Positions 3,246 through 26,226 of a stretch of 64,000 bases of DNA are shown here, in pieces; position 1 is the first letter of the stretch, and each line of letters starts with the position of its first letter. A model generated the notes under the pieces. That model saw only the letters and a program-made list of their open reading frames with translations, ran no database searches and had not been told where the DNA came from. The stretch covers positions 59,846-123,845 of the forward strand of contig BTUR01000001.1 in NCBI GenBank assembly GCA_045863475.1. The letters are read 5' to 3'. A program made the position numbers and the translations under genes. This stretch comes from Candidatus Campbellbacteria bacterium. Its GTDB lineage: Bacteria; Patescibacteriota; Minisyncoccia; Phycocordibacterales; EsbW-18.

Positions 3246-3276
3246 AATCCTCCGGCATGCCGGAGGATTTTTAGTT
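3246..3276 (+). terminator. Rho-independent terminator
   Basis: aaaatcctccggcatgccggaggatttttag hairpin + T-run. Confidence 0.65.
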
Positions 3277-3281
3277 TGTGA

Positions 3282-4225: not shown

Positions 4226-4317
4226 CTTGTCCACATAAGGCTTTTTTCCGAAAAAAAGCCTTATTTTTCGTGGTATTATTTGGGGTGGCAACTGAAGCCG
4301 CCGATTTTTCATTGTTC

Positions 4318-10300: not shown

Positions 10301-11100
10301 CCTCAACGCCAACTCAGACGTTCTCAGTGGAGGGGACGGTTGCGTTCAACGGACTCGGAACGGTTGGCGAGATTCAACCAGATGCACTCTGTATAGGCAG
10401 TGATGGAGAGGTAATGGTGAACACAGGAGCGACGGACTGCACCCTATCATCCATTCGTTTCAAACACGACGACCAAGACCTGGCCATCGGCTTAGACGAG
10501 CTCCTACAATTGCGCCCAGTGTCATTCGTGTACAACGAAATGGATGAACGAAGAGTTGGTTTTATTGCCGAGGATGTTGATGCTGTTTCAGGTCTCGACC
10601 CTCTCATCTTCCGTGAAGAAGACGGAACCCCGCGCGGTGTTCGTTATGGTGATATGGTTTCACTTGTCGTCAAATCAATACAGGAACTCAACTACAAGGT
10701 GGACCAGGCACTCGCGGCAAGCGGTGCAGCAATCCAAGGTGGTATCGCGCGATTTACGGAACTCATTGCGGACAAGGTTACGACAAAAGAACTTTGTCTG
10801 GATGATGTGTGTGTGACGCGTGACGAACTGCAAGAACTTCTTGATAATGCAAACATTGATAGCACGCCTCCAAGCGGCGGGGGAGACACAACACCGCCTT
10901 CAGGCACAACAACGCCGCCGACAGACGGGACGGGCACGACAACCGACCCCGCCCCCGAACCTGACCCGACCCCTGATCCGACGCCGGAGCCAGAACCAAC
11001 CCCGGAACCAACGCCGGAACCAACACCTGAACCTGAGCCAGAACCTGAACCCGAGCCCGAGCCAGAACCTACTCCTGAACCCGAACCAATAACCCCGTAA
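4318..11100 (+). CDS. Giant (~2260 aa) secreted fibre-like surface protein: signal peptide, YadA-head/Hep_Hag-like Gly-rich beta-repeats, repeated ~55-aa modules, peptidase-S74 intramolecular chaperone domain, Pro/Glu/Thr repeat tail
   Basis: Signal peptide MTERTPTKALLTSIFLLGSLLGPLFSEA; repeats like AIAIGNSNEAYS / SVAVGSNNALDG / AIAIGVESSGG; S74 motif SSIRFKHDD...LRPVSFVYNE...GFIAEDV...SLVVKSIQEL; C-terminal PEPTPEPEPEP. Confidence 0.8.
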   Translation: MTERTPTKALLTSIFLLGSLLGPLFSEAETTVEDPFATGSTTPTLFDRYATFSEGAQGVIFGAFEKTLADVLVGFRLYDEFSAGAERTVLDGFTAFADGALSATYTYENAANILHTATLASVSDAVDSVGGSVAFGRRSYVTAVDTVFAFAERAVVDTTDATVENAQRMTRVARSLVSLDTFVVRSTTEEEKEKLTPKQEPTVVIKNNTLTASGALAWNTLGGVPDVAIDAAKNSLAASAEATTGLFERTRLALRRWLGIGDDTMVAVPGTNTTTATTTVIERIVERPTTVTQVLRSSGVSYADLINAIAGLRNELQPQIDLAMERPRTVSHSGDDDDDGGDGGSSGDVTEDDLSDNSIEDLSDVAAMTETSGDLLYWNGATWTNIATSSLGISGGSSQWTTSGSDIYYTTGNVGVGTTSPDERLTVGGNIHATGSVDIDSGSEYQIGGTGILTRTSSGAVLLGDYNTSVTRGTNALELQSAPGDTTNFAQGNSSIVIGMWNRASSTNAIAIGNSNEAYSADDILVGYGNMTRETAAAGTQSDSTIFGRANEIWNVNNSLALGDDNSLTGGFAGLERQVVVGASNSVEGAGYTSVFGYDNTLNAASSYLYAVALGSTNILGTTPAYSVAVGSNNALDGARTVAVGSNVYAGGPEAIAIGVESSGGNMFALGYRAISIGVNTQANADGAIAIGNGIVNAVASSTQIGPSDTAKLTILGATGSEGFVGIGTTTPATNLVVDGDVSITGGLYDSGTSLGSNGMVLQSTGTGIDWVSTSSLNITQDLSAYLTLADWYATTTDGLAEGLTNLYNQTHTGEVTGATGLTIADDVVDEANLKINAAVDGYVISASSTASGGLAWVATSSLGFGSGSGVVGSGTTGQVAYYAADGTAVTGTSSVFIAPSGNVGIGSTTPLSVLTVSGPAATISIDNSSIGGRIYQLRNGVSPVGRFEIFDVSANETRLAIDSDGKTAIGTSTPIEDARLFIYGGANVDIRTAANTENATIEVQSDDFESSFQSAYLQYVGSGIAGNVFGSVPNADLARLVFQESANAAIYTTNDVPIIFGINSAEVARFSGTSFGIGTTSPYATLSVAGDIALTGGLYDSTASLGADGFVLQTTATGVEWVSTSSLNITQDLSGYFTLADWYATTTDGLAEGLTNLYNQTHTGEVTGATGLTIADDVVDEANLKINAAVDGYVISASSTASGGLAWVATSTLGLGSELFVDDGSTLRTAGGEAVQADYFIATSTSATSTFPIIAGSSAASGNLILQSTTNSTKGRIYLEGTSNGTGLGIRINNDSGTARLELYNGTSGNAAHILAGTILGSAFRGSASCSSAPCFSINPTQASFNSAYTLDWTSGAYNATRDIGLARVSAGILGVTGGLTGGGALSANYFTATSTSATSTFSGVLSVAGALADGSGSPGVSGYVLQSTGTGVDWVSTTTLGLDGGTSLFVDDGTTLRTADGEAVQASHIISTSTATSTFGGDISITGDIVPTADNTYSLGASTTQWKDVFIGPGSLYINGQKVIEEDGSNNIVVSSDINQSLVLQTSGSGDVELNPTGAGLIYLKGNINVTGGKVVSTSDNSLLEFEDGVLAGNLAIDGNAITATNTDGSISLTPNGVGNLLLTSGNFGIGTSSPYADLSVTGDIALTGGLYDNTATRGVSGYVLQSTGTGVSWVSTSSLNISGGSSQWTTTGSDIYYATGRVGVGTTAPAFTLSVAGDTLLDSNNIRFASSSASSLTVSYLAAATSTIVNNSAFSWTLATSTTATPIFRIDTTSGGMATTSIAGGLLINGGAISYDYGANETSIEKLNLGNMAFDDDAGIVSWINLPITASPSIGTPQSYSAQIDDNILLTIYGEADGSGGAQNLRVGVGTSTPYARFAIMGAAGSTDIFQIASSTGASVLTVTAAGKVGIGTTTPYTTLAIIGPDEAPTTATTTNGGLGIRGTGTTVELTMGTNVEGSEAYAWLQGKNYVTPGIYYPIILNQNGGNVGVGTSTPTQTFSVEGTVAFNGLGTVGEIQPDALCIGSDGEVMVNTGATDCTLSSIRFKHDDQDLAIGLDELLQLRPVSFVYNEMDERRVGFIAEDVDAVSGLDPLIFREEDGTPRGVRYGDMVSLVVKSIQELNYKVDQALAASGAAIQGGIARFTELIADKVTTKELCLDDVCVTRDELQELLDNANIDSTPPSGGGDTTPPSGTTTPPTDGTGTTTDPAPEPDPTPDPTPEPEPTPEPTPEPTPEPEPEPEPEPEPEPTPEPEPITP
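6718..6899 (+). repeat. Intragenic direct repeat copy A (~180 bp identical to 7768-7949)
   Basis: Identical DNA encoding AEGLTNLYNQTHTGEVTGATGLTIADDVVDEANLKINAAVDGYVISASSTASGGLAWVAT in both copies; antisense ORFs 6738..6944 and 7791..8006 share identical translations. Confidence 0.85.
7768..7949 (+). repeat. Intragenic direct repeat copy B
   Basis: See copy A; flanking ~80 bp diverged at synonymous and nonsynonymous sites. Confidence 0.85.
10860..11097 (+). repeat. Low-complexity (ccn-gaa/gag-cca) tandem repeat encoding TPPSG...PEPTPEPEPEPEP tail
   Basis: Visible short-period repeat cctgaacc/cgagcc; antisense translation is GSGVGSG. Confidence 0.8.
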
Positions 11101-11106
11101 TCTCCC

Positions 11107-14100
11107 ATGCGTTTTTCTCGTAGAACAATATATGTAGTAGTCGGGGTGATTGCGTTGATTGTTGCTTTGTACGCGCTGGTCACAACAGTGCGCGGTGATA
11201 CGTTTTTCGGAATTTCTCTGCGCTCGGGTTCTTTGAGCGACGGACTTATTGCGCATTGGACGTTTGACGGTAAGTACATGACACCGAATGTGCGGGATGC
11301 AGCCGGAAGTTACCACGGTGTATTAACAAACCAAACGGCAACGACAACACGTATCGGACGCATCGGGCAGGCGCTCGAATTTGACGGTGACAATGACTAC
11401 GTCAACCTCGGCACCATCCCGCTCAGCGACCCACTGCAGCTCTCTGACGATGTACTCACTATTTCTGCGTGGTTCTATCAAAAATCAGGGGGCGACAGCT
11501 TTCAACGCATTATCGACAAATCAAGCAACACGGGTGCGACAAACGGCTGGGCGTTTTTTGCCGACCCCAGTGATCCGAACTCCATATGGTTTCAATCTGC
11601 CGGTTCTGAACTTCGTTCCGCGGATAACGTCTACAATCAGAACGAATGGACACACGCGGCAGTCGTGTTTCGCGCCAATGATGTCAAAAAGATATACGTA
11701 AATGGCCAAGAGGTTTCGTTACAAACATCAAACAACCTAAACATCCCCAATTCAGCTGTCGGTGCCCGCATTGGTACGTGGTATAACGCCACGACGCGTG
11801 AATGGAACGGCTATCTCGATGATATCCGCGTGTACAACAGACTGCTTTCGGCAAACGAAATCAAGCGTTTGTACGGACTCGGCAACACGACGCGGATTTC
11901 AAAAACAATTTCTGTCGGCAGTATCGGTGCAACGGCCGACTCCGGGCTCGTCGGCCACTGGACGTTTGACGGTAAACACATGACACCGAATGTGCGGGAT
12001 ACCAGCGGGCAAGCGAATCATGGCGCACTCGCGAACTTTTCTGCTACGACCACTGCGATTGGCCGCATTGGTCAGGCACTTGAATTTGATGGATTGGACG
12101 ATGTTGTTGCTATTACACACAACAGCGTGCTCAATCCGTCGGGCAGTTATACCGTCGCGGCATGGGTATACCCACAAACCCTTCCTACAGTGAGCAACGG
12201 ACAATGGATTGGGATAGTTGCAAAAGGGAATACAGGGGAAACATCCGCGAGCAACCACCCATATGTTATCGCGTACCACCCTGTCGGTGGGGGAAGCCCG
12301 GTCGGCTTCGGTGTTGGACTCGAAAACAGCTCTGGATCAAACTGCAATGCATTTTCAAGTGATGCGGAACCAGCGGGAGCGTGGTATCACGTTGTCAGCC
12401 GTTTCAATGACAGTTCCAATGTGCTTGAAGTTTTCGTCAACGGTGTTTCTCAGGGAAGTGATGCATGTAGTTTAAGCCCCAACACTGGGAACTCGCGCCC
12501 TGTTTGGATTGGAGATGACGAACACACATCAGGACTTCGATTTGACGGTGTCATAGATGACGTCCGTATCTATAATCGCGCTCTTGTTGATGACGAAATA
12601 CAACGGCTCTACGATCAGGGTTCTGGCACCAGAATTACCTACACACCACCTGCGGAAGAAAACACTGCGCCGACGGTAAGTGATTCGGGGAGGAGTCCAT
12701 TTCACGGTGCGGATCTTGGCGGCTCTTCGTCCATAAAGCTCTTCATGAATACATGGACGGATCCGGAGGGGGATTCTATTGAATATTATTTTGAATTTTT
12801 CCAGAACGCGGCGTTTTGCAGTGGTGGAACAGGGATACTAAACAGTGGGTGGATTAGTGACCCAACAGCGACCGGAGGATTCACCGTAGCACTATCCGCT
12901 GGCAGCACATATTCATGGCATGTAAAGGCAAGGGACGAACACGGACTTGAGAGTGATTACAACGCCTGTTATGTGTTTACGAACAGTATCGGCGGCAGCT
13001 GTCCGTATGTGTTCGGTTGGGATGGAGAACAGTATCAATTCGAAGCAGATATCTACGGCTCCGGCGGCTTGGGGTACAAGAAATGGGGAGCATCCGACTT
13101 CGTGCAACCCTCTCCAAACAGGACGTATGTCCTGAAGTACGTAGAACCCCGAAATGGAGCGTTTGAGTGGCGCATCGTGGGTGACCTCAGTGAAATCAAC
13201 TACTTTGACCTCTTCCGTATGTATTCGTATTTTGTGCCGGAGGATCGTGACATCATCGTTGAGTCGCCGACGCTGGGCTCGGGTATGAGCGCGACGAGTA
13301 CGCTCCATACCATATCAACGGCACCGCTGTCGGCTCTGTCGGCGACGCGCCTTGATACGAACGAAGACGTTACGAGCGCTCTGTCAGCGCGCGACGAAGA
13401 CAAAGTCATCGTCAATAAGAACAAAAAAGAGACATATGAACCCGTACAAATAGAAGTCGATTTCGGCGACATCTCACGCTATTCGACGAAGAAGCTCGTT
13501 GTCGGCGGCTCAACAACGTACCCAACCACCGAAGAGGGTATCGCGCGCAAACAACTCTACGGTCGGGAGTGGGGTTTGTACGTGCAGGACGCGGCAGGGC
13601 AGTGGCAGAAAGTGCCGTACGAAAAATACAGCCCGACAAAACCGCTCTCATTCGAAAGTGTACTCGCCGTTGATATCTCAGACATCTTTATTTCGGAGAA
13701 CACAAAACTGCGCCTCGAGTACTTATATAAGGTATACGTGGATTACGTTGCATTGGACGTTACCGAGGATTTGCCGCTCGCGGTCGCCGAGGAACATCCA
13801 ATTACGTATGCTGACTTGCATGACTTTGGCGGATGGCACGATTTCGATAAGGATGGCAATGTGCCTGACTACTACAACGTTTCGCCACTTGAGGAGGATT
13901 ACGAGGATTTTCCGGGATACTACACCCGTTTCGGCGATGTTACTCCGCTTCTTGAAAAGCGTGACGACAAATTTGTTATTCTTGCGAAGAGAGACGAGAT
14001 AACCGTGAAGAACGCGCTACCCAAAATTGAACCCCCGACAGGATACAAGCGCGTGTACATGCTCGATGTGACCGGCTACTACAAGGCGCTCACCAAGACG

Positions 14101-14310
14101 ATGACGCCTATGACCGTTGAACCCATGCCGTTCTCGGGTATGAGTGCGTTCCCGTACCCTGATACGGAGCACTACCCGGACACGCCGGAGTATCAGGAGT
14201 ATCGGGCCAAATACAATACGCGGTACCTCTCTCCTGACACTCCAAGGAGCGGCTCCTCTATTACTGATGCGGCAAAGCGGCTCCTGGATGGCGTCCTTGG
14301 CGGGGAATAG
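11107..14310 (+). CDS. Membrane-anchored protein with two LamG-like (concanavalin A-like lectin) domains and a long Tyr/Pro-rich C-terminal region
   Basis: N-terminal TM helix; duplicated motif L(I/V)(A/G)HWTFDGK(Y/H)MTPNVRD..G..HG.L.N.(T/S)ATTT.IGRIGQALEFDG.(N/D)D(Y/V)V plus I(R/D)VYNR(A/L)L...EI.RLY; 7-nt gap after giant gene suggests one operon. Confidence 0.75.
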   Translation: MRFSRRTIYVVVGVIALIVALYALVTTVRGDTFFGISLRSGSLSDGLIAHWTFDGKYMTPNVRDAAGSYHGVLTNQTATTTRIGRIGQALEFDGDNDYVNLGTIPLSDPLQLSDDVLTISAWFYQKSGGDSFQRIIDKSSNTGATNGWAFFADPSDPNSIWFQSAGSELRSADNVYNQNEWTHAAVVFRANDVKKIYVNGQEVSLQTSNNLNIPNSAVGARIGTWYNATTREWNGYLDDIRVYNRLLSANEIKRLYGLGNTTRISKTISVGSIGATADSGLVGHWTFDGKHMTPNVRDTSGQANHGALANFSATTTAIGRIGQALEFDGLDDVVAITHNSVLNPSGSYTVAAWVYPQTLPTVSNGQWIGIVAKGNTGETSASNHPYVIAYHPVGGGSPVGFGVGLENSSGSNCNAFSSDAEPAGAWYHVVSRFNDSSNVLEVFVNGVSQGSDACSLSPNTGNSRPVWIGDDEHTSGLRFDGVIDDVRIYNRALVDDEIQRLYDQGSGTRITYTPPAEENTAPTVSDSGRSPFHGADLGGSSSIKLFMNTWTDPEGDSIEYYFEFFQNAAFCSGGTGILNSGWISDPTATGGFTVALSAGSTYSWHVKARDEHGLESDYNACYVFTNSIGGSCPYVFGWDGEQYQFEADIYGSGGLGYKKWGASDFVQPSPNRTYVLKYVEPRNGAFEWRIVGDLSEINYFDLFRMYSYFVPEDRDIIVESPTLGSGMSATSTLHTISTAPLSALSATRLDTNEDVTSALSARDEDKVIVNKNKKETYEPVQIEVDFGDISRYSTKKLVVGGSTTYPTTEEGIARKQLYGREWGLYVQDAAGQWQKVPYEKYSPTKPLSFESVLAVDISDIFISENTKLRLEYLYKVYVDYVALDVTEDLPLAVAEEHPITYADLHDFGGWHDFDKDGNVPDYYNVSPLEEDYEDFPGYYTRFGDVTPLLEKRDDKFVILAKRDEITVKNALPKIEPPTGYKRVYMLDVTGYYKALTKTMTPMTVEPMPFSGMSAFPYPDTEHYPDTPEYQEYRAKYNTRYLSPDTPRSGSSITDAAKRLLDGVLGGE

Positions 14311-15346: not shown

Positions 15347-17497
15347 ATGAACCGAGACTACCCACTGGAGAAGGTACGCAACTTCGGAATCGTTGCGCAC
15401 ATTGACGCCGGCAAGACGACTGTCTCCGAGCGTGTGTTGTTCTATACCGGCATGTCGCACAAAATCGGCGAGGTGCACGAAGGTGAAGCAACCATGGACT
15501 GGATGGAACAGGAGCGCGAGCGCGGTATCACCATTACCGCCGCGGCAACGACGTGTTTCTGGACGCCGTCTTACGAGGCGGACAACACGGAGCGCAAACA
15601 CCGTTTCAATCTCATCGACACTCCGGGCCACATCGACTTCACTATTGAAGTGAAGCGCTCACTGCGCGTGCTTGACGGTGCAGTCGTCGTCTTCGACGGC
15701 GTGTCTGGCGTCGAACCGCAGTCAGAGACGAACTGGCGCTATGCCGATGAAGGTAAGGTGCCGCGCATGTGTTTCATCAACAAACTCGACCGCACGGGTG
15801 CGTCATTTGAACGCTCCTACAAATCCATTCTTGACCGCCTCACGACGAACGCGGTGCGCATGCAGATTCCGATTGGTGAAGAGGACAAGCACGAAGGCGT
15901 CGTTGATCTCCTCACGATGAAGGCGTACTACTTCGAGGGAAACATGGGCAGTGTTATTCGTATTGATGAAGTACCGGAACACCTCACAGCCGATGCACAG
16001 AAATATCGTCACGAACTTATTGAGAAGATTGTTGAGCAGGACGAGGATGCAATGAACCTGTATTTGGAAGGGAAGGAGCCCTCTCTTGCGGAGCTTAAGA
16101 AGATTCTGCGCCGCGCGGTTATTGCAAACGCAATTACGCCGGTGTTTACCGGTTCAGCACTCAAGAACAAGGGTGTGCAGCTTGTGCTCGATGCGGTTGT
16201 TGATTATCTCCCCTCACCGTTGGATATTCCTCCGGCAAAGGGTATTGATCCGCACACTGGAGAAGAACTCGTGCGTCACGCCTCAGACGAGGAGCCGTTT
16301 TCGGCACTTGCGTTTAAGGTGCAGACCGACCCGTTCGTCGGACAACTCACGTTTTTCCGTGTCTACTCGGGAACGGTTGAAGCTGGCTCATACATGTACA
16401 ACGCGACAAAAGAGAGCAAAGAGCGTGTTGGCCGTATCGTGCGTCTTCACGCCAACGATCGTGAAGAGGTGAAGAAAGTGTTTGCGGGAGAAATTGCCGC
16501 CGCCGTGGGTTTGAAGGACACAACAACGTCGGATACGCTCTGTGACGAGAACAATCCGATTATCCTTGAGCGCATCAAGGTTCCGGAGCCGGTTATCTCA
16601 TTGCGTATTGAGCCGAAGACAAAAGCAGACCAGGAAAAACTCGGACTCGCGCTCAAACGTCTCTCGGACGAAGACCCGACATTCCGCGTTACGACTGACC
16701 CTGAAACCATGGAAACCATTATTGCAGGCATGGGTGAACTGCACCTTGAAGTGCTGGTGGAGCGCATGCGCCGCGAATTCTCCGTGGACGCAAACGTCGG
16801 CAAGCCGCAAGTTGCGTACCGCGAGACGATTACGGGCACGGCGGAAGTTGAAAACAAATACATCAAACAAACGGGAGGTCGCGGTCAGTACGGTCACGTG
16901 AAGCTTCGCGTCAAACCGATGGACACGACGATTAACGAAGAAGATTTGCCGAAGAACACGAAACGCGATGACGGTCTTGAGTTCATTAACTCCATCAAGG
17001 GAGGTGTCATTCCGCAGGAATACATTCCGGCGGTCCAGAAGGGTCTTCGTGAGGCGATGGATCGTGGTGTTTTGGCCGGTTACCACCTCGTGAACATCTC
17101 TGTAGATCTCTACGACGGTTCGTACCACGAAGTTGACTCATCTGAAATCGCGTTCAAAATTTCTGCTTCACAAGCACTCCAGGAAGCGGTACAGAAAGCA
17201 CGACCGGTGTTGCTCGAACCGATTATGAAAGTGGAGGTTGTGGTTCCGGAGCAGTTCATGGGTGACATTACCGGTAACCTCTCATCCAAGCGCGGACAAA
17301 TTCAGGGAATGGAAGACCGCGGACAACTCAAAGCAATCAAGGCATTTGTTCCGCTCTCCGAGATGTTCGGCTACACAACCGCACTTCGCTCCATGACGGA
17401 AGGACGCGGTAACTCAACGATGGAATTTGACCACTACGAAATCGTTCCAGACAGCGTTGCAAAGGGCATCATCGAAGCACGTGGTGCAGCTCGTTAA
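15347..17497 (+). CDS. fusA: Elongation factor G
   Basis: [13 protein letters not shown]1 motif, [11 protein letters not shown], full EF-G domain order; canonical str-operon position. Confidence 0.95.
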
Positions 17498-17522
17498 CTC
17501 TCCACCCGCATTTATTTTTGAG

Positions 17523-17562
17523 AACACAAAAACCGCCAAGCAAGGCGGTTTTTGTTTTTTTT
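17523..17562 (+). terminator. Rho-independent terminator after fusA
   Basis: aaaaccgccaagcaaggcggtttttgttttttttt. Confidence 0.75.
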
Positions 17563-17577
17563 TAAAAAAGGGGGGGT

Positions 17578-17611
17578 CTTGACGTTTTTTAGGTATACGC
17601 TATTGTGAACG
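17578..17611 (+). promoter_or_regulatory. Putative sigma70-like promoter (ttgacg-16-tattgt)
   Basis: -35/-10-like hexamers ~100 nt upstream of the 17718 ORF. Confidence 0.3.
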
Positions 17612-17717
17612 CTAAATTTGCTGTTCTTTGCAGACCCCATACTTCACCTCCTGGACCGCGTGGGTTCAGGGTTCGCTGTGATAGCAGGCGACTACCAGAA
17701 AGAAGAGGTGCTCAGAG

Positions 17718-18095
17718 ATGAAGAGATTCGTCCTCTGCGCGACGCTCGCGACGTTCGTCGCGGCGCTCGCCGTCTCCATCCCGGCCCAAGCAACGGACCC
17801 GAGTCCGCCGCTTGCCGAGTTGTCGATGGAGGCGCCGTACGCGCCCACCGATATCAATACCTTCTGCGAAGTCCAGATCGGCCTGACCCCTGCCATCCTC
17901 ACCGAGCACGTCCTCGTCCTGCCCGACCTCACCGGCGACCGTGTCGACCGCGACGTCGGCTGGGTCGACATCTCCGCGAACCCCTTCTTCGTGCGAACGG
18001 TCGACACAACGACCACTTCGAGCTCCATCGGCGCCGACCGACAGCGTGACACCGGCGAGAAACGAGGGGGCGCCCTGCGCGCCCATCCGACCTGA
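17718..18095 (+). CDS. Small secreted protein of unknown function on a high-GC (~66%) island
   Basis: Sec signal peptide MKRFVLCATLATFVAALAVSIPAQA; RBS aagaggtg; GC3-rich codon usage unlike flanking fusA; own promoter-like and terminator. Confidence 0.55.
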   Translation: MKRFVLCATLATFVAALAVSIPAQATDPSPPLAELSMEAPYAPTDINTFCEVQIGLTPAILTEHVLVLPDLTGDRVDRDVGWVDISANPFFVRTVDTTTTSSSIGADRQRDTGEKRGGALRAHPT

Positions 18096-18118
18096 CCAAC
18101 ACCACCAAGGCGAAGTAC

Positions 18119-18160
18119 GGGAAACCCCGAGTCCGAAAGGATTCGGGGTTTCTTCTTTTT
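18119..18160 (+). terminator. Rho-independent terminator
   Basis: aaaccccgagtccgaaaggattcggggtttcttcttttt. Confidence 0.65.
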
Positions 18161-18250
18161 GTATACGGGTTTGACTTCCATTTTTGAAGAGGGTAGTGTT
18201 GTCCTAGATTTTGCGGATTCTGGCTTGAGAGAGCCGAGGAGGGGGTAAAG

Positions 18251-18616
18251 ATGCCCAGGTACTGTCTCACGTTTGGGAACAATTACTTCGACAATGGACT
18301 CGAGAACGGGTGCGTCGAGGGCAACATGTGCCGAGTCATCTTCGCGGATGATGAGCAGGTGGCCAGACGAATTGGCCTGATTATGGAGGGTGAGGAGGTT
18401 AACGCCCACGAGACTCTCGGTCGGCTCCTCACGGTGAATGAGACAAAGGGCGAGATCAGTCTCAACTCATGGGATCCCGAGAAGATGATGGAGGAGGTGC
18501 TCCAAATTCTGATTACCCAAGGCGAAGAGGGTCTCCAGATTGCTCGAGGTGGCCAGGGTGAGCCAATCGGGTTGACACGCCTCGTGTCCACCGTGCCCGC
18601 CGTAAAGCTCGAGTAA
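18251..18616 (+). CDS. Hypothetical cytoplasmic protein (121 aa)
   Basis: Strong RBS gaggagggggtaaag immediately upstream of ATG; no signal peptide; followed by terminator hairpin. Confidence 0.5.
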   Translation: MPRYCLTFGNNYFDNGLENGCVEGNMCRVIFADDEQVARRIGLIMEGEEVNAHETLGRLLTVNETKGEISLNSWDPEKMMEEVLQILITQGEEGLQIARGGQGEPIGLTRLVSTVPAVKLE

Positions 18617-18624
18617 TACTGAGG

Positions 18625-18680
18625 AGCAGGACAACAACCGCCCAACGAGATCGTTCAATGAATCCGTTGGGCGATTTCGT
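18625..18680 (+). terminator. Rho-independent terminator
   Basis: ccgcccaacg...cgttgggcg hairpin followed by atttcgttttttt. Confidence 0.55.
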
Positions 18681-18699
18681 TTTTTTGAATCAAGGTAGC

Positions 18700-18845
18700 C
18701 GCACGATATTCCTGAGGGATTAGTGCTATATCGTGCGGCGTAGTACGAAGTGAGCTTGTTATTTGCAAAAACTCGCGGAGGCCGAAGAGGCCGAGTGTGA
18801 ACGCCCCGCCAACAGGCGGGGACGTGTGTTTTGCAAATAATCAAG
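18700..18845 (+). other. Inverted-repeat-bounded structured element: hairpin ccgcacgatat/atatcgtgcgg, then 12-bp perfect IR ttatttgcaaaa...ttttgcaaataa enclosing GC-rich nested stems
   Basis: Perfect 11-bp and 12-bp inverted repeats read directly; inner cgccccgcc aaca ggcggggacg stem; palindromic core TTTGCAAA in both arms. Confidence 0.4.
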
Positions 18846-18971
18846 CGAGCGGAGAGTTTATGTACTTTTTATGCAATGTGTGCTATCGTCGTTGCGCAGA
18901 GTCGTAAGGCTCTTTATTAGCTCTTTTCGGCAAGTATCGCAATACGCCGAAGAGGGAGAAGTTAGCATAGT

Positions 18972-19271
18972 ATGGAAGGAGCAAAATTGTACGTCGGCAA
19001 CCTTAGCTACGGAACGACTGAAGAGTCGATCCGCGAGCACTTTGGACAAGCTGGCTCAGTCGCATCAGCGACAATTATTCGCGACAAGATGACCGGCCGT
19101 TCAAAAGGTTTCGGGTTCGTCGAAATGTCATCTGCAGAAGACGCGCAGAAGGCAATTGAGATGTTCCACGGAAAAGACTTCGACGGACGCGCGCTGACGG
19201 TAAACGTAGCACGCCCGATGACGGAGCGACCTCCGCGCCGTGACAACTACGACAACGGTGGACGTTGGTAA
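18972..19271 (+). CDS. RNA-recognition-motif (RRM) RNA-binding protein
   Basis: RNP-2 LYVGNL and RNP-1 KGFGFVEM motifs; Arg/Gly/Asp-rich C-terminal tail. Confidence 0.8.
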   Translation: MEGAKLYVGNLSYGTTEESIREHFGQAGSVASATIIRDKMTGRSKGFGFVEMSSAEDAQKAIEMFHGKDFDGRALTVNVARPMTERPPRRDNYDNGGRW

Positions 19272-19282
19272 GCCACTCTCTT

Positions 19283-19362
19283 TGATTTTTTAAGAGCACG
19301 CGTCCGTTTCTACTGAAACGGCGCTCACGCTCGGGCTCTTCGCCCTCCGCAAGGCTCTTAAA
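19283..19362 (+). other. Second IR-bounded element (ttttttaagagc ... gctcttaaaaaa) enclosing hairpin ccgtttc tact gaaacgg
   Basis: 12-bp perfect inverted repeat flanking a GC-rich 57-nt core, immediately downstream of the RRM gene. Confidence 0.4.
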
Positions 19363-19375
19363 AAATAAAGTATCG

Positions 19376-19412
19376 TTTGATTGATAAAAACCTTGGGCTT
19401 TGCCCAAGGTTT
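19376..19412. terminator. Bidirectional rho-independent terminator
   Basis: gataaaaaccttgggctttgcccaaggtttttatc: 12-bp perfect stem with A/T runs both sides. Confidence 0.7.
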
Positions 19413-19482
19413 TTATCGTTTCTTTACAATTTTTAAGTGCAGGCATACCATTTATCATAGAAGTACACCAACGAGAGGAGGG

Positions 19483-19806
19483 ATGTGTATGTCCGTTTTG
19501 AGAGACCACGTGGTTGAGACGCTGATGGCTCACCGCTCTCAGATTCGACGCCTGCTTACCATCATGACTCCCAACCTTCCACGGAGGGCGAGCATGGTCA
19601 GGCGCATCAACACGCTGATCAATCAGAAGGAGCTTTCCCCAGAGTTCGGGGTGGGGCTCAAGATGGTTCTCCACGCCAGAATTCCTTCTGGGGCGAGGTC
19701 ACTCGTCGAGCTGGGGAGAACTGCAAGGCAGTTTCGCCATCTTCTGGAAGCAACAGATCAGTCGATGCAGATGACCAAGAAGGTGCACGTGCTCAAGGCC
19801 GTGTGA
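19483..19806 (+). CDS. Hypothetical protein (107 aa; alternative start ATG at 19489)
   Basis: RBS gagaggagg just upstream; intact ORF. Confidence 0.45.
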   Translation: MCMSVLRDHVVETLMAHRSQIRRLLTIMTPNLPRRASMVRRINTLINQKELSPEFGVGLKMVLHARIPSGARSLVELGRTARQFRHLLEATDQSMQMTKKVHVLKAV

Positions 19807-19949
19807 ACGGCTGTTTACCGAGGCTCGGGTTACCCCCGGGCTTCTTCTTTTCCCCATGATTTCCCCAGAAATATGAAGTGAGCCCAAAAGGCCTTATTTG
19901 AGGCCTCTAAAATACCTATTTTTACGGCCTAAAATAAGGCTAAATAAAC

Positions 19950-19977
19950 TTGACACGATACTTCGGCTGGGTATAAT
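19950..19977 (+). promoter_or_regulatory. Consensus sigma70 promoter (TTGACA-16-TATAAT), probable 23S rRNA promoter with A/T-rich UP region
   Basis: cttgacacgatacttcggctgggtataatggc read directly; ~320 nt upstream of 23S 5' end. Confidence 0.6.
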
Positions 19978-20893
19978 GGCCGTACTGAATATGATTACTT
20001 CAATTAACTGCATACCGCGGAGCATATAGATGCGAGCCCTTGTGGTGCGCCTCGAAACCCTCCGCTCAAAAAGCGGTTTTTTTGTTCTCATAGACAGTCG
20101 ATGACCTTTGACAACTGCATAAGCAATAAAGAATCAAATGCTTATTTCGCGCAAGCGAAGTAAGCGCAGGTATCTCGTGCGGCTCATCTAGCGCCGCGCG
20201 GGAATCAAACAACGTGTACCGCGCAGCGGTGTGTTGGTGCACGGAATCGCAGACGCATGTAGGTGCGTATGCGATAAAGACGGTTTTTAGATTTCCTAAC
20301 GGGAGATTTAAAGGGCGTATGGTGGATGCCTTGGTTCTATGTGGCGATGAAGGACGTGGTGTAACTGCGATAAGCTTCGGGGAGGTGTTAAGCAACCTTT
20401 GATCCGGAGATTTCCGAATGGGGAAACCCTGTCGAGTAACCCTCGATAACCGACGCAGCGATGCGCGGAGCATACCCTGGGAAGTGAAACATCTCAGTAC
20501 CAGGAGGAAAAGAAAACAAATGTCATTCCCTTAGTAGCGGCGAGCGAAACGGGAGCAGCCCAAACCACACTGTACTTGTATAGTGTGGCGTTGTAGGGCG
20601 GTAACGCCTGTTTTTAACAAGGAGAAAGTTACAAAATACATCTTTAGTCGAATGCGCTGGAAAGCGCAATCCCAGAAGGTAACAGTCCTGTAGACGAAAA
20701 AGATGTATCTTTCTAGTTACCGTTCCTGAGTACCTCAAGACACGAATAGCTTGGGGGAATCCGCCGGAACTAACCGGCAAGGCTACATACACATAGAGAC
20801 CGATAGTGAACTAGTACCGCGAGGGAAAGGTGAAAAGAACCCCGGAGAGGGGAGTGAAATAGATCTGAAACCATATGCCTACAAGGAGTCAGA

Positions 20894-21228
20894 GCCGAGC
20901 TCTACTTTTTGTTTTTAATTTTCTTTGAACATGTTGAAGGTACGCTCGTGCATATGCACGTTGTGTATCTGATACAAAACACGGTGAGCCACGAACTGTA
21001 CGTTGGTGTAACACGCGACCTTAAAAAGAGGTTGGTGACACATAACAGCGGTGCGGTTACGGCAACGCGACGCAGCGGCGAGTGGGTCTTGATTTACGCG
21101 GAGGCGTATCGAGATGAGCACGACGCGCGCGAGCGAGAGCATCACCTCAAACAGCGCGGCGCGGCAAAACGCGGCGTGTATGAAAGAGTTCGAAGAAGTT
21201 TCCTTGAAAACAAAAAGTAGAGCTTCGG
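20894..21228 (+). other. Intervening sequence (IVS)-like insertion in the 23S helix-25 region, closed by a ~17-bp stem (gccgagctctactttttg ... caaaaagtagagcttcgg)
   Basis: rRNA similarity is interrupted after CAAGGAGTCAGAGC and resumes at GCGTGCCTATTGAAGAATGAGCCAACGAGTT; the insertion termini are an almost perfect inverted repeat. Confidence 0.65.
20954..21220 (+). CDS. GIY-YIG nuclease-superfamily protein (UPF0213-like, ~88 aa) encoded inside the 23S insertion
   Basis: VYLIQN...ELYVGVTRDLKKRLVTHNSG...LIYAEAYRDEHDAREREHHLK GIY-YIG motifs; ORF exactly fills the loop, stop codon TAG lies in the 3' stem arm. Confidence 0.7.
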   Translation: MHVVYLIQNTVSHELYVGVTRDLKKRLVTHNSGAVTATRRSGEWVLIYAEAYRDEHDAREREHHLKQRGAAKRGVYERVRRSFLENKK

Positions 21229-22640
21229 TCATGGCGTGCCTATTGAAGAATGAGCCAACGAGTTTAAGTATGCGGCGAAGCTAAATCCTTTGTCGGATGA
21301 AGCTGCAGGGAAACCGAGTGTTAATAGCGCGTACTTTGAAAGCAAGGAGGTCGGACGTGTAGGTGAGCAATCACACACGCGTTCGGCATTCTCGCTTTCA
21401 AAAGGTCGTATACTTAAGACCCGAAGCTAGGTGAGCTACCCATGAGCAGGGTGAACTTTGTCGAAAGATGAAGGGAGGCCCGAACCGGTTGATGGTGCAA
21501 AATCTTCGGATGACTTGTGGGTTGGAGTGAAAAGCTTATCGAACCTAGTAATAGCTGGTTCTCTCCGAAACAGCTTTTGGGCTGGCGTACAGCGTACCTC
21601 TTGGGGGTAGAGCACTGGATGGTCCGGATAGGGAGAAATCTCGCTGGACCAATCAAACTCCGAATACCAAGAGTAAGTACTGTGCAGTTAGACCGTGGGG
21701 GCTAAGCTCCACTGGTCAAAAGGGAAACAGCCCTTGATCTCAAGTTAAGGTCCCTAAATCGATGCTAAGTGCAAGTCGAGGAGGTGAAATTTCTCAGACA
21801 CTGAGGAAGTTGGCTTAGAAGCAGCCATCTTTTAAAGAAAGCGTAACAGCTCACTCACTCAGAGATTTCGCGCCACAGACTATCGGGGCTAAGTATCGTA
21901 CCGAAACTGAGGATGACACGTGCGTTCGCGCATGTGTCGTGGTAGGAGAGCATTTCCATCTGCGATGAAGCCGAAGGCGTGAGCCACGGTGGAGCGATGG
22001 GAAGAGAGAATGTTGGTACAAGTAACCGCAATGCGGGTGAAATACCCGCACGCCGAAAAACCGAGGTTTCCTTCGCGATGGTAATCAGCGAAGGGTTAGT
22101 CGGGCCTAAGCGAATGGCGAAAGCCGGACGTGATGGACACACGGTTAATATTCCGTGACTCGGCTGTAATTCGATGGAGAGACGGAGTGAAGTATATATC
22201 GCACATTATTGGATTTGTGTCGGGCATGCGAGGAGGTCTGTTTGGCAAATCCGGCAGACACTACTCCAGAGGCATGTTCGGGAACCCAATCTACGGAACG
22301 GGGAACGATATAAAGCGCGCTTCCAAGAAAATCTTCTAAGGTTAATTACAGACGACCCGTACCGCAAACCGACTCCGGTGGTTAGCTCGAGTAGAGTAAG
22401 GCGAACGAGTGAGAGGTCCTCAAGGAACTCGGCAAAAAAGCGACCGTAAGTTAGCAATAAGGTCTGCCTGCGCAGCAGTGCGTGGGCCGCAGCTAAAGTC
22501 TTCCTGGCGACTGTTTATCAAAAACACAGCTCCCTGCGAACTCGTAAGAGGATGTATAGGGGGTGACACCTGACCAATGCCAGAAGGTCAAGTATGGAGG
22601 GTCTTCTCCGCAAGGAGAAGGCTGAGCTATATAAGCCCTG

Positions 22641-22702
<62 letters not shown>

Positions 22703-22765
22703 ACGCCGATGAGAACAAATGCTATGGTACGTAAATAGTCTGTGCGCATGGCGAAGTGCCACGTG

Positions 22766-23425
22766 CTATGCAGTTTCTTCAGGTGCGGCTGTTTCTCCTT
22801 CTCCCTCCGCAGTTTCATCCTTACCTTTCTTTTCCACTTCGATTGCATCCATGTCAATCGGTGCAACCGGCTCTTCGATTTCTTCTTGCGGCTGAGAAAT
22901 TGCGGCAACCACTTCGTCTCCTTCGTTGAGAATCGTAACACCTGCAGGCACGGGTATGTCTTTAATGACAACTTGACTGTCAAACGTTTCAAGCGATGAC
23001 ACATCAACAGTGAGCTCGTGTGGCAAGTCTTTTGGCATCGCCTCAACTTCCACCTCGTGCATCACCTTCACCAGTGTACCACCCAAGTTCTTAACTGCGG
23101 GCGCCTCACCTGTGAACAACAGCGGGACATCGATGCGAAGCTTCTTTCCTTTCTCGATAACGTAAAAATCAACGTGCTCAAATACATCCGTGACCGGATG
23201 TTTTGTAACTTCATGAACGAGCGCGTCTTTCGGCTCACCAACACCTTCCAGTGTGATGATGGATGATTCACCGGCCGAGCGGAACACTTTTTCAAATGTC
23301 TTGCGGTCAACTGCAATCGGCGTGGATTCCTCTTTCGGACCGTAAAAAACCGCCGGAATCTTGCCGCCTTTGCGCAAGCTCTCCGCGTTTCCTGCCTCTC
23401 GTTTTTCTACTGTAAGCGTCAACAT
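22766..23425 (-). CDS. rplY: 50S ribosomal protein L25 / general stress protein Ctc
   Basis: L25/Ctc family (LTVEKREAG..SLRKGGKIPAVFYG, two beta-barrel domains, acidic tail); start set to MLTLTVEKR. Confidence 0.85.
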   Translation of the reverse strand: MLTLTVEKREAGNAESLRKGGKIPAVFYGPKEESTPIAVDRKTFEKVFRSAGESSIITLEGVGEPKDALVHEVTKHPVTDVFEHVDFYVIEKGKKLRIDVPLLFTGEAPAVKNLGGTLVKVMHEVEVEAMPKDLPHELTVDVSSLETFDSQVVIKDIPVPAGVTILNEGDEVVAAISQPQEEIEEPVAPIDMDAIEVEKKGKDETAEGEGETAAPEETA

Positions 23426-23465
23426 AGGCGTCCTATACTCGCATAAAACCTCGCCGAAGGCAAGA

Positions 23466-24338
23466 TTAGAACCCCGCAAAAAGCTTCATGCGCTTCTCGA
23501 CGACCTCCTGGACTGCAACAAGCGCTTGTTTTGTGTATTTGTAGGGAGCAAGCTCGTCCGGGTTCTCCTGCAAACTGAGCTGGAGTGCTTTTCGGTACGC
23601 CTGTCTGAGTTCCGTGGAAACATGCACGAGCGCAATGCCGTTTTTGATGACCGCCGCGTAATCCTCGTCAGATGTTCCGGTGCCGCCGTGCAAAACGAGC
23701 GGGACAGCGACCGCACCGGCAATCTCTTTAACCCGTTCCGGGTTAAGCCGCGGATCCATACCGCTCTTCAGTGTTCCGTGAATGGTGCCGACCGCAGGAG
23801 CAAGCAGGTCAACGCCGGTTTCCTCAACAAATCGCTTTGCATCCGCCGCTGTCGTCATCATCTCGGAAGTGACCGCTGCTCCCTCGGGAAGCGCATCAAG
23901 CACTTGTGAACCGACACCAATAAATCCGAGTTCCCCTTCAATCAACGTCGCGCCTCCTTTCTCTTTTGCGTATGCGGCACACTCACGCGCCTTGGTAATA
24001 TTCTCCTCAAGTGAAAGTTGTGCGCCGTCAAAAATGACCGAGTCGAAACCAGCGTCAATTGCCTCCTTCACGCGCTCAACTGAATAGGTGTGATCGGCGT
24101 TAAGATAGACGGAGAGACCTGATTCTTCACGCGCTGCGCGCACCATTACGGCAAGTTCACGAACGCCGAACGCATCACGCTCGCCCTCTGACGCTCCGAT
24201 GACGACCGGAAGACCGGTTGCCTTTGCCGCGGCAACGACGGCGCGAAACATCTCTATGTTGCCGACGTTAAAATGGCCGACTGCCTTTCCCTGCGCGCGA
24301 TATTCTTGGAGCGTCTCTATAAGCGTCTGCATGCACAT
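23466..24338 (-). CDS. fba: Class II fructose-1,6-bisphosphate aldolase
   Basis: FbaA/tagatose-bisphosphate aldolase family motifs (VGHFNV, LHGGTG.SDED). Confidence 0.85.
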   Translation of the reverse strand: MCMQTLIETLQEYRAQGKAVGHFNVGNIEMFRAVVAAAKATGLPVVIGASEGERDAFGVRELAVMVRAAREESGLSVYLNADHTYSVERVKEAIDAGFDSVIFDGAQLSLEENITKARECAAYAKEKGGATLIEGELGFIGVGSQVLDALPEGAAVTSEMMTTAADAKRFVEETGVDLLAPAVGTIHGTLKSGMDPRLNPERVKEIAGAVAVPLVLHGGTGTSDEDYAAVIKNGIALVHVSTELRQAYRKALQLSLQENPDELAPYKYTKQALVAVQEVVEKRMKLFAGF

Positions 24339-24360
24339 ATTTTAGCACGGCGCCTGTGCT

Positions 24361-25380
24361 ATGATAGTCCTCATGAAGTACGACTTTATCGCCATCGGCG
24401 ACACGGTAACTGATGAATTCATCGAGGTAGATGACGTGCGCATTGATGTAAAACGCGATCCGGAGGATAAGGGCTACCAGGAAATCTGCTTCCGTTTCGG
24501 AGATAAGGTGTCCTATAAAAACGTTGAGACCGTGCATGCTGTCGGCAATTCCGCAAATGCCGCGGTTGCCGCAACACGTCTCGGACTCGCAACCGCATTC
24601 GTCTCCAATGTCGGCGATGATGAGCTTGGCGAGAAAATCCTTGAGACGCTCACGATGCAAAATGTTTCAACTGCATTTGTGCGCATTCATGAAGACATGC
24701 TGTCCAATCACCACTACGTATTGCAGTACGGCCCGGAACGAACCATTCTCATCAAGCACCAGCCGTATCCGTACGCATTGCCCGACATTGATGATCCTGC
24801 GTGGGTATACCTCTCATCACTCTCGGAACACTCGCTTGAATTCCATCACGAAATTGCAACCTACCTCGAAGCACACCCAAACGTAAAACTCGCGTTTCAA
24901 CCCGGCACGTTTCAGATTAAGCTCGGCGCCAAAGAACTCGCCGACCTCTACGCACACACGCACGTCTTTTTCTGCAACCGCGAAGAAGCGGGCCGCATCC
25001 TTGAAACAACTGAACTGGGAGACACACAAAAATTATTGAAAGATCTCTCGGCACTCGGTCCGAAGATTGTCATCATCACCGACGGTCCTGCCGGCGCATT
25101 CTCATACGACTCTGCAAGCGGCGAGATGCTCACTGTCCCCATGTTCCCCGATCCGAAACCGCCCGTAGACCGCACCGGCGCGGGAGATGCATTTTCTTCA
25201 ACCGTCATCGGCGCACTCGCGCTTGGAAAACCCTTATCTGAGGCCCTTTTGTGGGGACCCGTCAATTCCATGTCGGTTGTGCAGCACATCGGTGCACAGA
25301 AGGGTCTTCTCCCCCGAGAACAGATTGAAAAGCACCTCGCCGAAGCACCCGCTGGCTACGCGGTCACTACTCTGAGTTAA
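24361..25380 (+). CDS. PfkB-family carbohydrate kinase (ribokinase-like)
   Basis: N-terminal GD motif, GNSANAAVA, C-terminal DRTGAGDAF signature. Confidence 0.8.
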   Translation: MIVLMKYDFIAIGDTVTDEFIEVDDVRIDVKRDPEDKGYQEICFRFGDKVSYKNVETVHAVGNSANAAVAATRLGLATAFVSNVGDDELGEKILETLTMQNVSTAFVRIHEDMLSNHHYVLQYGPERTILIKHQPYPYALPDIDDPAWVYLSSLSEHSLEFHHEIATYLEAHPNVKLAFQPGTFQIKLGAKELADLYAHTHVFFCNREEAGRILETTELGDTQKLLKDLSALGPKIVIITDGPAGAFSYDSASGEMLTVPMFPDPKPPVDRTGAGDAFSSTVIGALALGKPLSEALLWGPVNSMSVVQHIGAQKGLLPREQIEKHLAEAPAGYAVTTLS

Positions 25381-25422
25381 TACCTGCTACAATGGCGGCA
25401 GACCTTTAAAAGGAGCCCTGCC

Positions 25423-26226
25423 ATGCGAAATAGTTTCGTTGTCGCCGCGCTCCTTCTTGGAGCGCTCTTTGACACCTCTTCCCCTCTTCTCGGACACACC
25501 GAAGAAGAACGGCGCACCGATCTCGTACAGGAACTCAGTGCATTCTTCGAAAAAGACTGGGTCCTCGACATCTTCAACCACCAAGACCTCTGTGCCGGTC
25601 GCGAGATTCCCATTGAACGACTACGGGGCGGTTGGCCTGAGCTTGAGCGCCAAGTACTCCACGAAGATTCCGTCGCTCGCGGCGTCGCGTTCTTCGAGGA
25701 ACACTATTTCACGCTGACAGGCACGAGCTATGCGCACCGAGACAAGACAAACACACTTCCGTTTGTCACGGTGGCAATTCTCCGCATCGAGTCCGATCTC
25801 GGTGAAAACCGCACCGGCACACCGGTCATACGAACGTTGTTCAACAAGTATCACAGAGCAACAGACGGGCCCGGCGGCAATGCACGTCGACGGTATATCC
25901 TTGAGCGCGAAATTGTTCCCTTCATGCGCATGGCGGCCCAAAGTGATTGGGACGTGTGCGGTATTCTGGGAACGCGTGCTGCAGCATTCGGCTATCCGCA
26001 TTTCATTCCGGAATCCCTGCGTCTCTCGGCTGACGGTGATGGTGACGGTACCATCGACCTGATGTGGAGCGTGGCCGACGCGGTCGCAAGCATCGGAAAC
26101 TACCTCGAAAAAACGGGGTGGCATCGCTCACCAAAGCAGTCGGTGTTTCGGTACAATCCCGACTGGAGGTATGTGCACATCGTGCTTTCGTACGCGAAAG
26201 CACTGGAAAGAGCTGTTAAAGAATGA
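25423..26226 (+). CDS. Lytic murein transglycosylase (MltB/SLT_2-like) with signal peptide
   Basis: VAILRIESDLG...GYPHFIPESL...DGDGDGTIDL...ASIGNYL pattern of SLT_2 family. Confidence 0.7.
   Translation: MRNSFVVAALLLGALFDTSSPLLGHTEEERRTDLVQELSAFFEKDWVLDIFNHQDLCAGREIPIERLRGGWPELERQVLHEDSVARGVAFFEEHYFTLTGTSYAHRDKTNTLPFVTVAILRIESDLGENRTGTPVIRTLFNKYHRATDGPGGNARRRYILEREIVPFMRMAAQSDWDVCGILGTRAAAFGYPHFIPESLRLSADGDGDGTIDLMWSVADAVASIGNYLEKTGWHRSPKQSVFRYNPDWRYVHIVLSYAKALERAVKE

Follow-up and report, generated by a model that had tools for sequence, protein, structure and literature searches.

The stretch of DNA analysed here, 64,000 nucleotides from a Candidatus Campbellbacteria bacterium that we call the window, carries at positions 20895 to 21228 an insert of 334 nt in the tip of helix 25 of a 23S rRNA gene. 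The insert is closed by a terminal inverted-repeat hairpin, and an open reading frame (ORF) for a minimal GIY-YIG nuclease forms its loop. It is a selfish insert of the intervening sequence (IVS) type and not an intron. We consider it probable that it represents one copy of a family of selfish cassettes spread across the Candidate Phyla Radiation (CPR), in which a terminal inverted-repeat hairpin holds a minimal GIY-YIG gene in its loop, and for which we propose excision by RNase III and a role of the nuclease in mobility. This cassette family changes sites and has non-autonomous derivatives, and its GIY-YIG ORF is under purifying selection.

The host 23S rRNA gene begins at window position 20299 on the forward strand (Rfam LSU_rRNA_bacteria, 1436 bits), and its 5' two thirds, up to about Escherichia coli position 1958, were delimited at 20299..22703 (+) by Rfam and by comparison with E. 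coli rrlH (blastn, pairwise alignment). In the Rfam alignment a long insert stands directly after model position 583, within the helix-25 hairpin, and according to the alignment with rrlH the extra DNA lies at the tip of this helix, with E. coli 23S positions 540 and 559 on its two sides. The bounds of the whole cassette (20895..21228, +) were set by homology to the arms of the family (CCGAGC...GCTTCGG), and the cassette is oriented in the sense of the 23S rRNA. The original prediction, an earlier note on this DNA, had placed a stem-closed insertion of ~335 nt at helix 25, and this is borne out. Logan assemblies of the runs DRR491768 and DRR491769 match window positions 20834-21855 at 99.9-100% identity; since the same insert is found in two independent assemblies, it is not an assembly artefact. 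Group I and group II intron models gave no match at E<=0.01 in positions 17000-26000, where only the LSU model matched (Rfam). Indeed, the arms and the ORF fill the 334 nt and therefore leave no room for a ribozyme.

The inverted repeat that closes the cassette spans 20898-20918 and 21204-21224 (21 nt, 95%). In the RNA fold, positions 20894-20918 pair with 21204-21229 over 25 bp with a single bulged T at 21224, and a second paired run (20920-30 with 21188-98) adds 11 bp more. The fold has a minimum free energy of -158 kcal/mol, corresponding to a z-score of -8.2 against 100 shuffles, and the stem of the cassette continues the host helix. The near-perfect inverted repeat announced by the earlier note is therefore present, but its length had been underestimated at 17 bp, and folding confirmed the extended stem that was to be looked for. 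The 17-nt arm sequence occurs at these two places only in the 64 kb, for a chance expectation of 0.17 matches. The 5' arm (20894..20930, +; 25 bp, 1-nt interruption, 11 bp), delimited by the inverted repeat, the fold and the covariation of the family, holds the family motif CTACTTTTTG. The 3' arm (21188..21229, +; inverted repeat and fold) codes the C-terminus of the protein (..SFLENKK) and contains the stop codon. A small palindrome, CGTGCATATGCACG, detected by a stem-loop scan and in the sequence itself, holds the start codon (20947..20960, +).

The ORF (20954..21220, +; ORF call, Pfam and fold) encodes a single-domain GIY-YIG nuclease, GMU73889.1, whose source according to NCBI is a Candidatus Campbellbacteria metagenome-assembled genome (MAG). 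Its ATG start gives 88 aa and an alternative TTG at 20909 gives 103 aa, while its TAG stop (21218-21220) lies within the 3' arm. The protein matches the Pfam family GIY-YIG (PF01541) at E=5.1e-16 and 59 bits, for a cut-off of 22.6. Among solved structures, its sequence is closest to two UPF0213 proteins, BH0048 and EF2693; Slx1 and the catalytic domain of I-TevI come next, and the family profile finds the UPF0213 structures 1zg2 (E=2.8e-12) and 1ywl (1.2e-7). The AlphaFold model (pLDDT 91.8) ranks the solved relatives in the same way by fold: it resembles BH0048, the nuclease domain of Slx1 and the catalytic domain of I-TevI, with 1zg2 as top match in Foldseek. Residues Y5, Y16, G18, R26, H30 and E50 are invariant over 24 homologues, and N31 is present in at least 90% of them. 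The protein consists of one compact domain, without the linker or the DNA-binding domain of homing enzymes of the I-TevI type (Pfam, AlphaFold). NCBIfam gave no family assignment above its cut-offs for this protein, and a tblastn search against plasmids gave no match. The earlier description of a UPF0213-like GIY-YIG ORF of ~88 aa whose stop codon lies in the 3' arm thus holds, and the ORF passes the GIY-YIG profile search that had been suggested as a check.

Relatives of the cassette and their sites

A protein search returned 2636 relatives at E<=0.001. Loci were fetched from CPR genomes (28, by a search with an alignment of 8 sequences) and from metagenomes (80), and the relatives were mapped by blastn against E. 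coli 16S and 23S rRNA; where needed, loci are designated below by L and proteins by P numbers. The MAGs that hold the 28 genomic relatives are nearly all labelled CPR, with one Bdellovibrionales and three named just 'bacterium'. Elements of the family measure 301-339 nt and are closed by terminal stems of 20-29 bp. The stem motif reads 5' YCC(A/C/G)(G/T)C-NN-YA(C/G)TTTTG(G/A), with the complement at the 3' end (window version CCGAGCTCTACTTTTTG). Over 27 stems, 94.6% of the cells are paired and compensatory double changes occur at 19 of the 22 pairs; none of 500 shuffles and no slid register approach these values. The 3' arm codes the C-terminus of the protein (typically ..K-S-G/E-A-G) and often the stop codon too.

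An intact ATG-started ORF of 78-118 aa is present in 80 of the 84 distinct elements, and the median ratio of non-synonymous to synonymous substitution rates (dN/dS) is 0.17 over 178 pairs, with a maximum not above 0.43. Taken together, the intact ORFs, the low dN/dS and the invariant catalytic residues indicate that the ORF family is a working gene. Moreover, 46 of 76 elements, compared with 6.9 for shuffled sequences, have a -10 box (at least 5 of 6 positions of TATAAT) whose end is separated from the ATG by 5-9 nt and mostly by 6-7 nt; 26 of these 46 carry TG at the extended -10 position. Such a box just before the ATG predicts an internal promoter and a leaderless mRNA.

Nearly all relatives (99 of 110) lie within rRNA genes, always on the rRNA sense strand, and they fall into at least 10 site classes. 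The region of 23S helix 63 (~1704/1770) holds 75 of them, the other 23S sites being ~130/157, ~227, ~270/293, 560-668, ~2397/2408 and a position just 5' of the gene, and those in 16S rRNA lie in two regions of the 5' domain. Among the relatives mapped, the window copy is the only one with an ORF exactly at 540/559. Three relatives are inserted in RNase P RNA, namely L023 (Rfam E=1e-25), L030 (3e-20) and L058 (assigned by its flanks). The coordinates on these hosts (Rfam class A) are 3977-4279 and 4691-4787 in L023, ~1664-1976 in L030 and 1147-1468 in L058, and the RNase P scores of L023 and L030 fall below the gathering score owing to the inserts. The ORF-bearing copy of L023 replaces helix P3, and an ORF-less copy with the same arms stands near the 3' end of the RNA.

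Some loci fall outside these hosts. Cassettes with typical arms in L072-L074, L096 and L102 match no rRNA and no Rfam family at E<=0.01, and some of them sit a few hundred bases from tRNA genes. More distant GIY-YIG relatives (L027 2839-3096; L028 and L029 4001-4260) stand ~110 nt downstream of a tRNA gene and not in rRNA, and they follow a different, GC-rich repeat structure (GCCACG...CGTGGC).

Changes of site are apparent from the protein comparisons. The three closest indexed homologues of the window protein (50-53% identity) include one at another 23S site and one in a 16S gene. By protein (L033 58%, L004 54%) and by arms (CTACTTTTTGTTTTT) alike, the window copy has its nearest relatives in 16S rRNA and not in 23S helix 25. 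More generally, the nearest protein neighbour stands at a different site for 17 of 76 elements, with cross-site pairs linking helix 63 to 23S ~2400 (69%), to 23S ~227 (77%) and to RNase P RNA (66%).

The non-autonomous derivatives are 39 ORF-less hairpins of 41-129 nt that carry the family arm motif and lie in the same genes as the ORF elements. Some of them occur at helix 25 itself, in the relatives L013/L057, L024 and L015. The arms of these minis are nearer to those of the ORF element of their own genome, with 10.4 vs 8.9 of 12 positions in agreement (permutation p~2e-4). Single 23S genes can hold three to six ORF-less hairpins (52-129 nt) at different helix tips together with one ORF-bearing copy: L006 has minis at 1938-2040, 2604-2711, 3253-3354 and 4393-4494, L024 has six copies and L013 five. 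Two GIY-YIG ORFs per locus are found in L005, L013 and L057. In the Parcubacteria 23S gene of L005, helix 25 also holds an insert with a tRNA-like sequence (3774-3872), bounded by GTTGCAGA...TCTGCAAC. This sequence scores 56 bits with the Rfam tRNA model, has a CCA end and is apparently interrupted, and ARAGORN makes no call on it; it might be another insert removable by the host, through RNase P and RNase Z.

A distinct kind of host is found in more distant relatives, where a GIY-YIG domain is fused in frame to the N-terminus of a prepilin (N_methyl, G|FTLIE) in dozens of CPR proteins (e.g. L113 456-1214, L114 1501-2226 and L116 1501-2211; proteins P0024, P0155, P0173 and P0023). In the DNA, the original start of the pilin gene (ATG AAA AAA GAA AAA GGT TTT A) is followed by the 5' arm CCCCGCACCATTTTT and the GIY-YIG ORF, and on the other side the 3' arm AAAAATGGTGCGGGG (K-N-G-A-G) is joined in frame to the host sequence TTTACCCTAATTGAA (F-T-L-I-E). 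Orthologous pilins without insert are 72-74% identical (P0157, P0158 and P0162, the last of which begins MAMKKEKGFTLIE). The arms of the pilin cassettes are homologous to those of the rRNA type (CCCAGCACCACTTTTTGG), and GGNTTYAC stands on both sides of the cassette in pilin genes only. The pilin case is therefore an insertion into DNA and not an RNA-level event, and prepilin peptidase would presumably separate the GIY-YIG part from the pilin. On orthologues of the same pilins (P0170, P0178, P0184, P0186, P0199), the family 23S_rRNA_IVP (PF05635) forms an N-terminal extension that ends at G|FTLIE, so that both IVS ORF families share rRNA helix tips and prepilin leaders.

Proposed mechanism and competing explanations

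We propose that in the precursor 23S rRNA the long duplex would be cut by RNase III and the cassette discarded without religation, leaving a 23S rRNA split at helix 25, as with the IVSs of Salmonella, Leptospira and Coxiella. A continuous RNA duplex of at least 25 bp at a classical IVS site would be expected to serve as a substrate of RNase III. At the DNA level, the proposal relies on the analogy with the Ssn nucleases, GIY-YIG enzymes associated with hairpin repeats (Chenal et al. 2025, PMC11893778): the 88-aa protein would recognise its own stem in single-stranded DNA, and the break that it makes would drive the copying of the cassette and its minis, or their maintenance. Because Ssn tolerates any loop insert or a split hairpin, a hairpin with the nuclease gene as its loop would fit this enzymology. 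In most relatives, the ORF's own -10 box would give rise to a leaderless mRNA.

More tentatively, as a serious possibility rather than the expected outcome, the family may constitute an undescribed class of mobile elements. Such an element would be a DNA hairpin whose loop is an Ssn-like nuclease with a leaderless promoter; its minis would be mobilised in trans, and it would settle only where host processing removes it. These places would be the helix tips of 16S, 23S and RNase P RNA, where it would be cut out as double-stranded RNA, and the prepilin leaders, which would be cut by prepilin peptidase at G|FTLIE.

Several observations weigh against the interpretation as a selfish, mobile cassette. 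The window copy lacks the family -10 box: the hexamer at its position, by comparison with the family, is a degenerate TACGCT (20941..20946, +; 3/6), and no promoter was scored inside the element. As the box has decayed, expression of the ORF there would depend on the rRNA transcript. The mismatches of the stems, counted by eye, are ~10 G-U vs 6 A-C, and with no clear bias towards G-U, selection on the sense RNA is inseparable from selection on the DNA repeat. No extra copy of the arm was found in the 64-kb window, and mobilisation in trans is seen in the relatives only. Flanks inspected by eye show no target-site duplication at the rRNA sites. The loci were collected with one peptide pattern, which biases the site frequencies. 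Finally, the host 23S gene is incomplete on this contig, which is a probable chimera.

The cassette could also stay in the mature 23S rRNA as a surface expansion of helix 25, its ORF being expressed from an internal promoter or not at all. The variability and solvent exposure of helix 25 would permit this, the stem stacks on the host helix, and expression needs no processing in most relatives, which have their own -10 box. CPR rRNA insertions are, on the other hand, reportedly absent from rRNA transcripts. As every tested bacterial IVS with a stem of at least 20 bp is cut out by RNase III (PMC4990558), we hold retention to be unlikely, though it keeps some weight. Another explanation takes the nuclease and its hairpins as a domesticated pair that, like SsnA and NTS in Neisseria, trims incoming transforming single-stranded DNA and modulates recombination without propagating itself. 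CPR bacteria are believed to depend on the uptake of DNA. The Ssn-like architecture (single-domain GIY-YIG gene, hairpin repeats, ORF-less copies) and the strongly purifying selection on the protein agree with such a role; low copy numbers, confinement to structural RNA genes and prepilin leaders, and the choice of sites where host processing should remove the insert are instead typical of a hiding parasite and not of a genome-wide regulatory repeat, which makes domestication distinctly unlikely in our view. That the GIY-YIG protein itself excises its own stem from the precursor rRNA seems highly improbable, even if the conservation of the stem in sequence, and not in pairing alone, suggests a sequence-specific reader. 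We know of no RNA-cleaving GIY-YIG enzyme. RNA processing cannot explain the relatives in pilin genes, and SsnA neither bound nor cut RNA (PMC11893778).

GIY-YIG being a family of homing endonucleases, the ORF product might cut the empty helix-25 site as duplex DNA and be copied in by repair, as in classical homing. Weak matches to a model of group I intron endonucleases and to the catalytic domain of I-TevI, together with rDNA flanks conserved between species, go in this direction. Against this stand the 88-aa single-domain protein without a DNA-binding domain, the absence of an intron, and close relatives at 10 or more unrelated sites without shared flanks, including RNase P RNA and a pilin gene; the passages of Tsurumaki et al. 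2024 (PMC11270868) on GIY-YIG insertions likewise judge them to stand outside spread by homing. We therefore think homing very unlikely. We give practically no credence to three further readings, namely an intron (group I or II), an artefact of the assembly, and an ORF that arose by chance within a native helix expansion. CPR rRNA genes are rich in introns according to the same passages of PMC11270868, and the contig appears chimeric 1.5 kb downstream, but no intron model matched and two independent assemblies carry the identical insert. As for a chance ORF, the reading frame scores above the Pfam cut-off and its family is under purifying selection, so that the native expansion without a conserved ORF, which the original prediction had named as its counter-case, is not what was found. 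These three possibilities are refuted by Rfam, the Logan assemblies, Pfam and dN/dS. What we retain is thus the selfish cassette of the CPR-wide family, at the strength given at the outset.

The contig around the host gene

Homology to 23S rRNA ends at window position ~22705, equivalent to E. coli ~1958, and the later 23S motifs (peptidyl-transferase, sarcin-ricin) were found nowhere in the 64-kb window. The loci L120 and L121, which come from independent assemblies, match the window from its right side at 100% down to 22703/22704 only. Past this point L120 runs into an intact gene of 473 aa with an SLT domain and a signal peptide (MRTDYLRTIAFVLIGVLLSTPVFAAKK), which is cut short in the window, and the contig of L121 stops at the breakpoint. 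Pairing of the 5' leader with the sequence past the break, as a putative processing stem, was not above shuffles (-64 vs -59.7±5.9). We considered a split or truncated 23S rRNA as real biology and rejected it, the independent assemblies switching partner exactly at 22703/22704. Judging from these matches, the contig is most likely chimeric at this position, where we place a probable assembly junction (22703..22704, outside the element), and the truncation of the 23S gene is most likely not biological. Consequently, the DNA to the left and to the right of 22703 may not be genome neighbours.

A promoter-like site (TTGACA, 16 nt, TATAAT; 12/12 matches in a consensus scan) lies 5' of the 23S gene at 19950..19977 (+). 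Two further insertions relative to E. coli 23S were noted, both without the family arm motif: 56 nt near position 291 (window 20588-20643) and, near 660, a hairpin with 32-nt arms (window 21335-21402). No 16S, 5S or tRNA gene was found anywhere in the 64-kb window. In the interval that separates the 23S gene from fusA lie small protein genes, including an ORF resembling an RRM RNA-binding protein by eye (18972-19271). Two very large ORFs, of 2276 aa (4270-11100) and 1067 aa (11107-14310), the second with two Laminin_G_3 domains, are found upstream of rpsL, rpsG and fusA.

Relation to described systems and significance

GIY-YIG genes within CPR rRNA are not new. According to the relevant passages of Tsurumaki et al. 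2024 (J Bacteriol, PMC11270868), 30 GIY-YIG ORFs lie in CPR rRNA insertions, 15 in 16S and 15 in 23S; these insertions match neither group I nor group II introns and occupy scattered, poorly conserved sites, and many short non-intron insertions are found at classical IVS sites. The same passages credit the first mention of such GIY-YIG insertions to Brown et al. 2015. The rarity that the original prediction had attached to a GIY-YIG gene in a CPR rRNA insertion was, given this published set, overstated. The window insert, which exceeds 100 bp relative to E. coli, contains a PF01541 ORF, matches no intron model and comes from a CPR host, corresponds to how those passages define their insertions (at least 100 bp), and it shares with them the host group, the host genes, the Pfam domain, the lack of an intron and the location at helix tips. 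It is thus a further example. The passages in question give the ORF counts and positions and hold no mention of a shared terminal stem, of minis, of a -10 box, of hosts such as RNase P RNA or prepilins, or of a parallel with Ssn. In the open-access literature we found no description of the covarying stem, the genome-matched minis or the -10 box, nor of insertion into RNase P RNA and prepilin leaders or of a link to Ssn, and, apart from the Ssn paper, nothing directly relevant on a link between GIY-YIG and prepilins or on hairpin or miniature inverted-repeat transposable element (MITE) descriptions. The insert therefore belongs to an already published kind, while the architecture shared by its relatives and their spread seem not to have been described before.

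The cassette also resembles the classical IVSs, whose usual sites are helices 9, 25 and 45 (PMC4990558). Contrary to the earlier note, which held classical IVSs to be non-coding, a sense ORF (S23p, Pfam 23S_rRNA_IVP) is present in the loop of those of Leptospira, Coxiella, Brucella and Xanthomonas (PMC4990558). In Coxiella burnetii, RNase III excises from helix 45 an IVS of 428 nt that has a 28-bp stem and bears its ORF in the sense orientation (PMC4990558); for our cassette, excision by this enzyme would follow by analogy. A mobility function was long ago proposed for the product of the loop ORF (Ralph and McClelland 1993, cited after PMC4990558). With its location at a variable helix tip, its stem of at least 20 bp and its lack of a self-splicing ribozyme, the window insert has the features of an IVS. 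Like classical IVSs, it replaces a variable helix tip, with a stem of 25-28 bp, a sense ORF in the loop, a length of 300-450 nt and no religation machinery. The two differ in their ORF families, GIY-YIG in the cassette and the four-helix-bundle S23p (PF05635) in classical IVSs, and the Coxiella ORF is decaying and probably unexpressed, whereas the GIY-YIG family is under purifying selection.

By analogy of architecture and enzymology, we regard the system of Ssn nucleases and hairpin repeats as the closest functional analogue. Ssn nucleases (GIY-YIG cd10448) are monomeric, single-domain enzymes of about 90-150 aa, SsnA having 94 aa, and their genes stand between hairpin repeats (NTS/SRM) that also occur in many ORF-less copies at other places of the genome (Chenal et al. 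2025, PMC11893778). The enzyme binds the hairpin only as single-stranded DNA and cuts adjacent to it, tolerating arbitrary loop inserts or a hairpin made of two strands, and the arrangement of repeat, gene and repeat is compared by the authors of that study with an insertion sequence (PMC11893778). The cassettes have in common with Ssn a single-domain GIY-YIG protein of ~90 aa (88 aa in the window), the association with a hairpin and, in the relatives, ORF-less copies. However, each Ssn flank is a complete hairpin of 20-50 nt, whereas the flanks of a cassette are the two halves of one hairpin with the gene as its loop; Ssn repeats occur by the hundred between genes, whereas cassettes are few and lie inside RNA genes. 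The likeness rests on architecture, the best solved relative of the window protein being UPF0213.

Other mobile systems are comparable in part. As in REP/RAYT, IS200/IS605 and MITEs, a nuclease gene is accompanied by hairpin repeats, with ORF-less derivatives that have matching ends (in the relatives). Unlike REP/RAYT and IS200/IS605, the cassettes encode a GIY-YIG protein and not an HUH transposase, no target duplication was seen by eye at their RNA-gene sites, and their targets are helix tips of structural RNAs. Insertion sequences use known transposase families, and GIY-YIG is not a known bacterial transposase. The window protein shares its catalytic fold and residues (Tyr, Tyr, Arg, Glu) with homing endonucleases of the I-TevI type, but the cassette has no linker, DNA-binding domain, intron or single conserved target site.

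The nature of rRNA intervening sequences, and what moves them, have been open questions since the early 1990s. The cassette and its ~100 relatives offer a concrete test system, with an 88-aa nuclease under selection, a 22-bp hairpin as its expected substrate and ORF-less derivatives. The characterised analogue Ssn would predict its activity, namely the cleavage of single-stranded hairpin DNA, and small sequence-specific nucleases of this kind could become tools for single-stranded DNA, as proposed for Ssn. The cassettes lengthen CPR rRNAs and probably fragment them, and thereby affect rRNA-based surveys and assemblies; the present contig, most likely chimeric downstream of the gene, is a case in point. 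If the family is indeed an undescribed class of mobile elements, this could also explain the origin of classical rRNA intervening sequences, whose 23S_rRNA_IVP family is likewise found at prepilin leaders.

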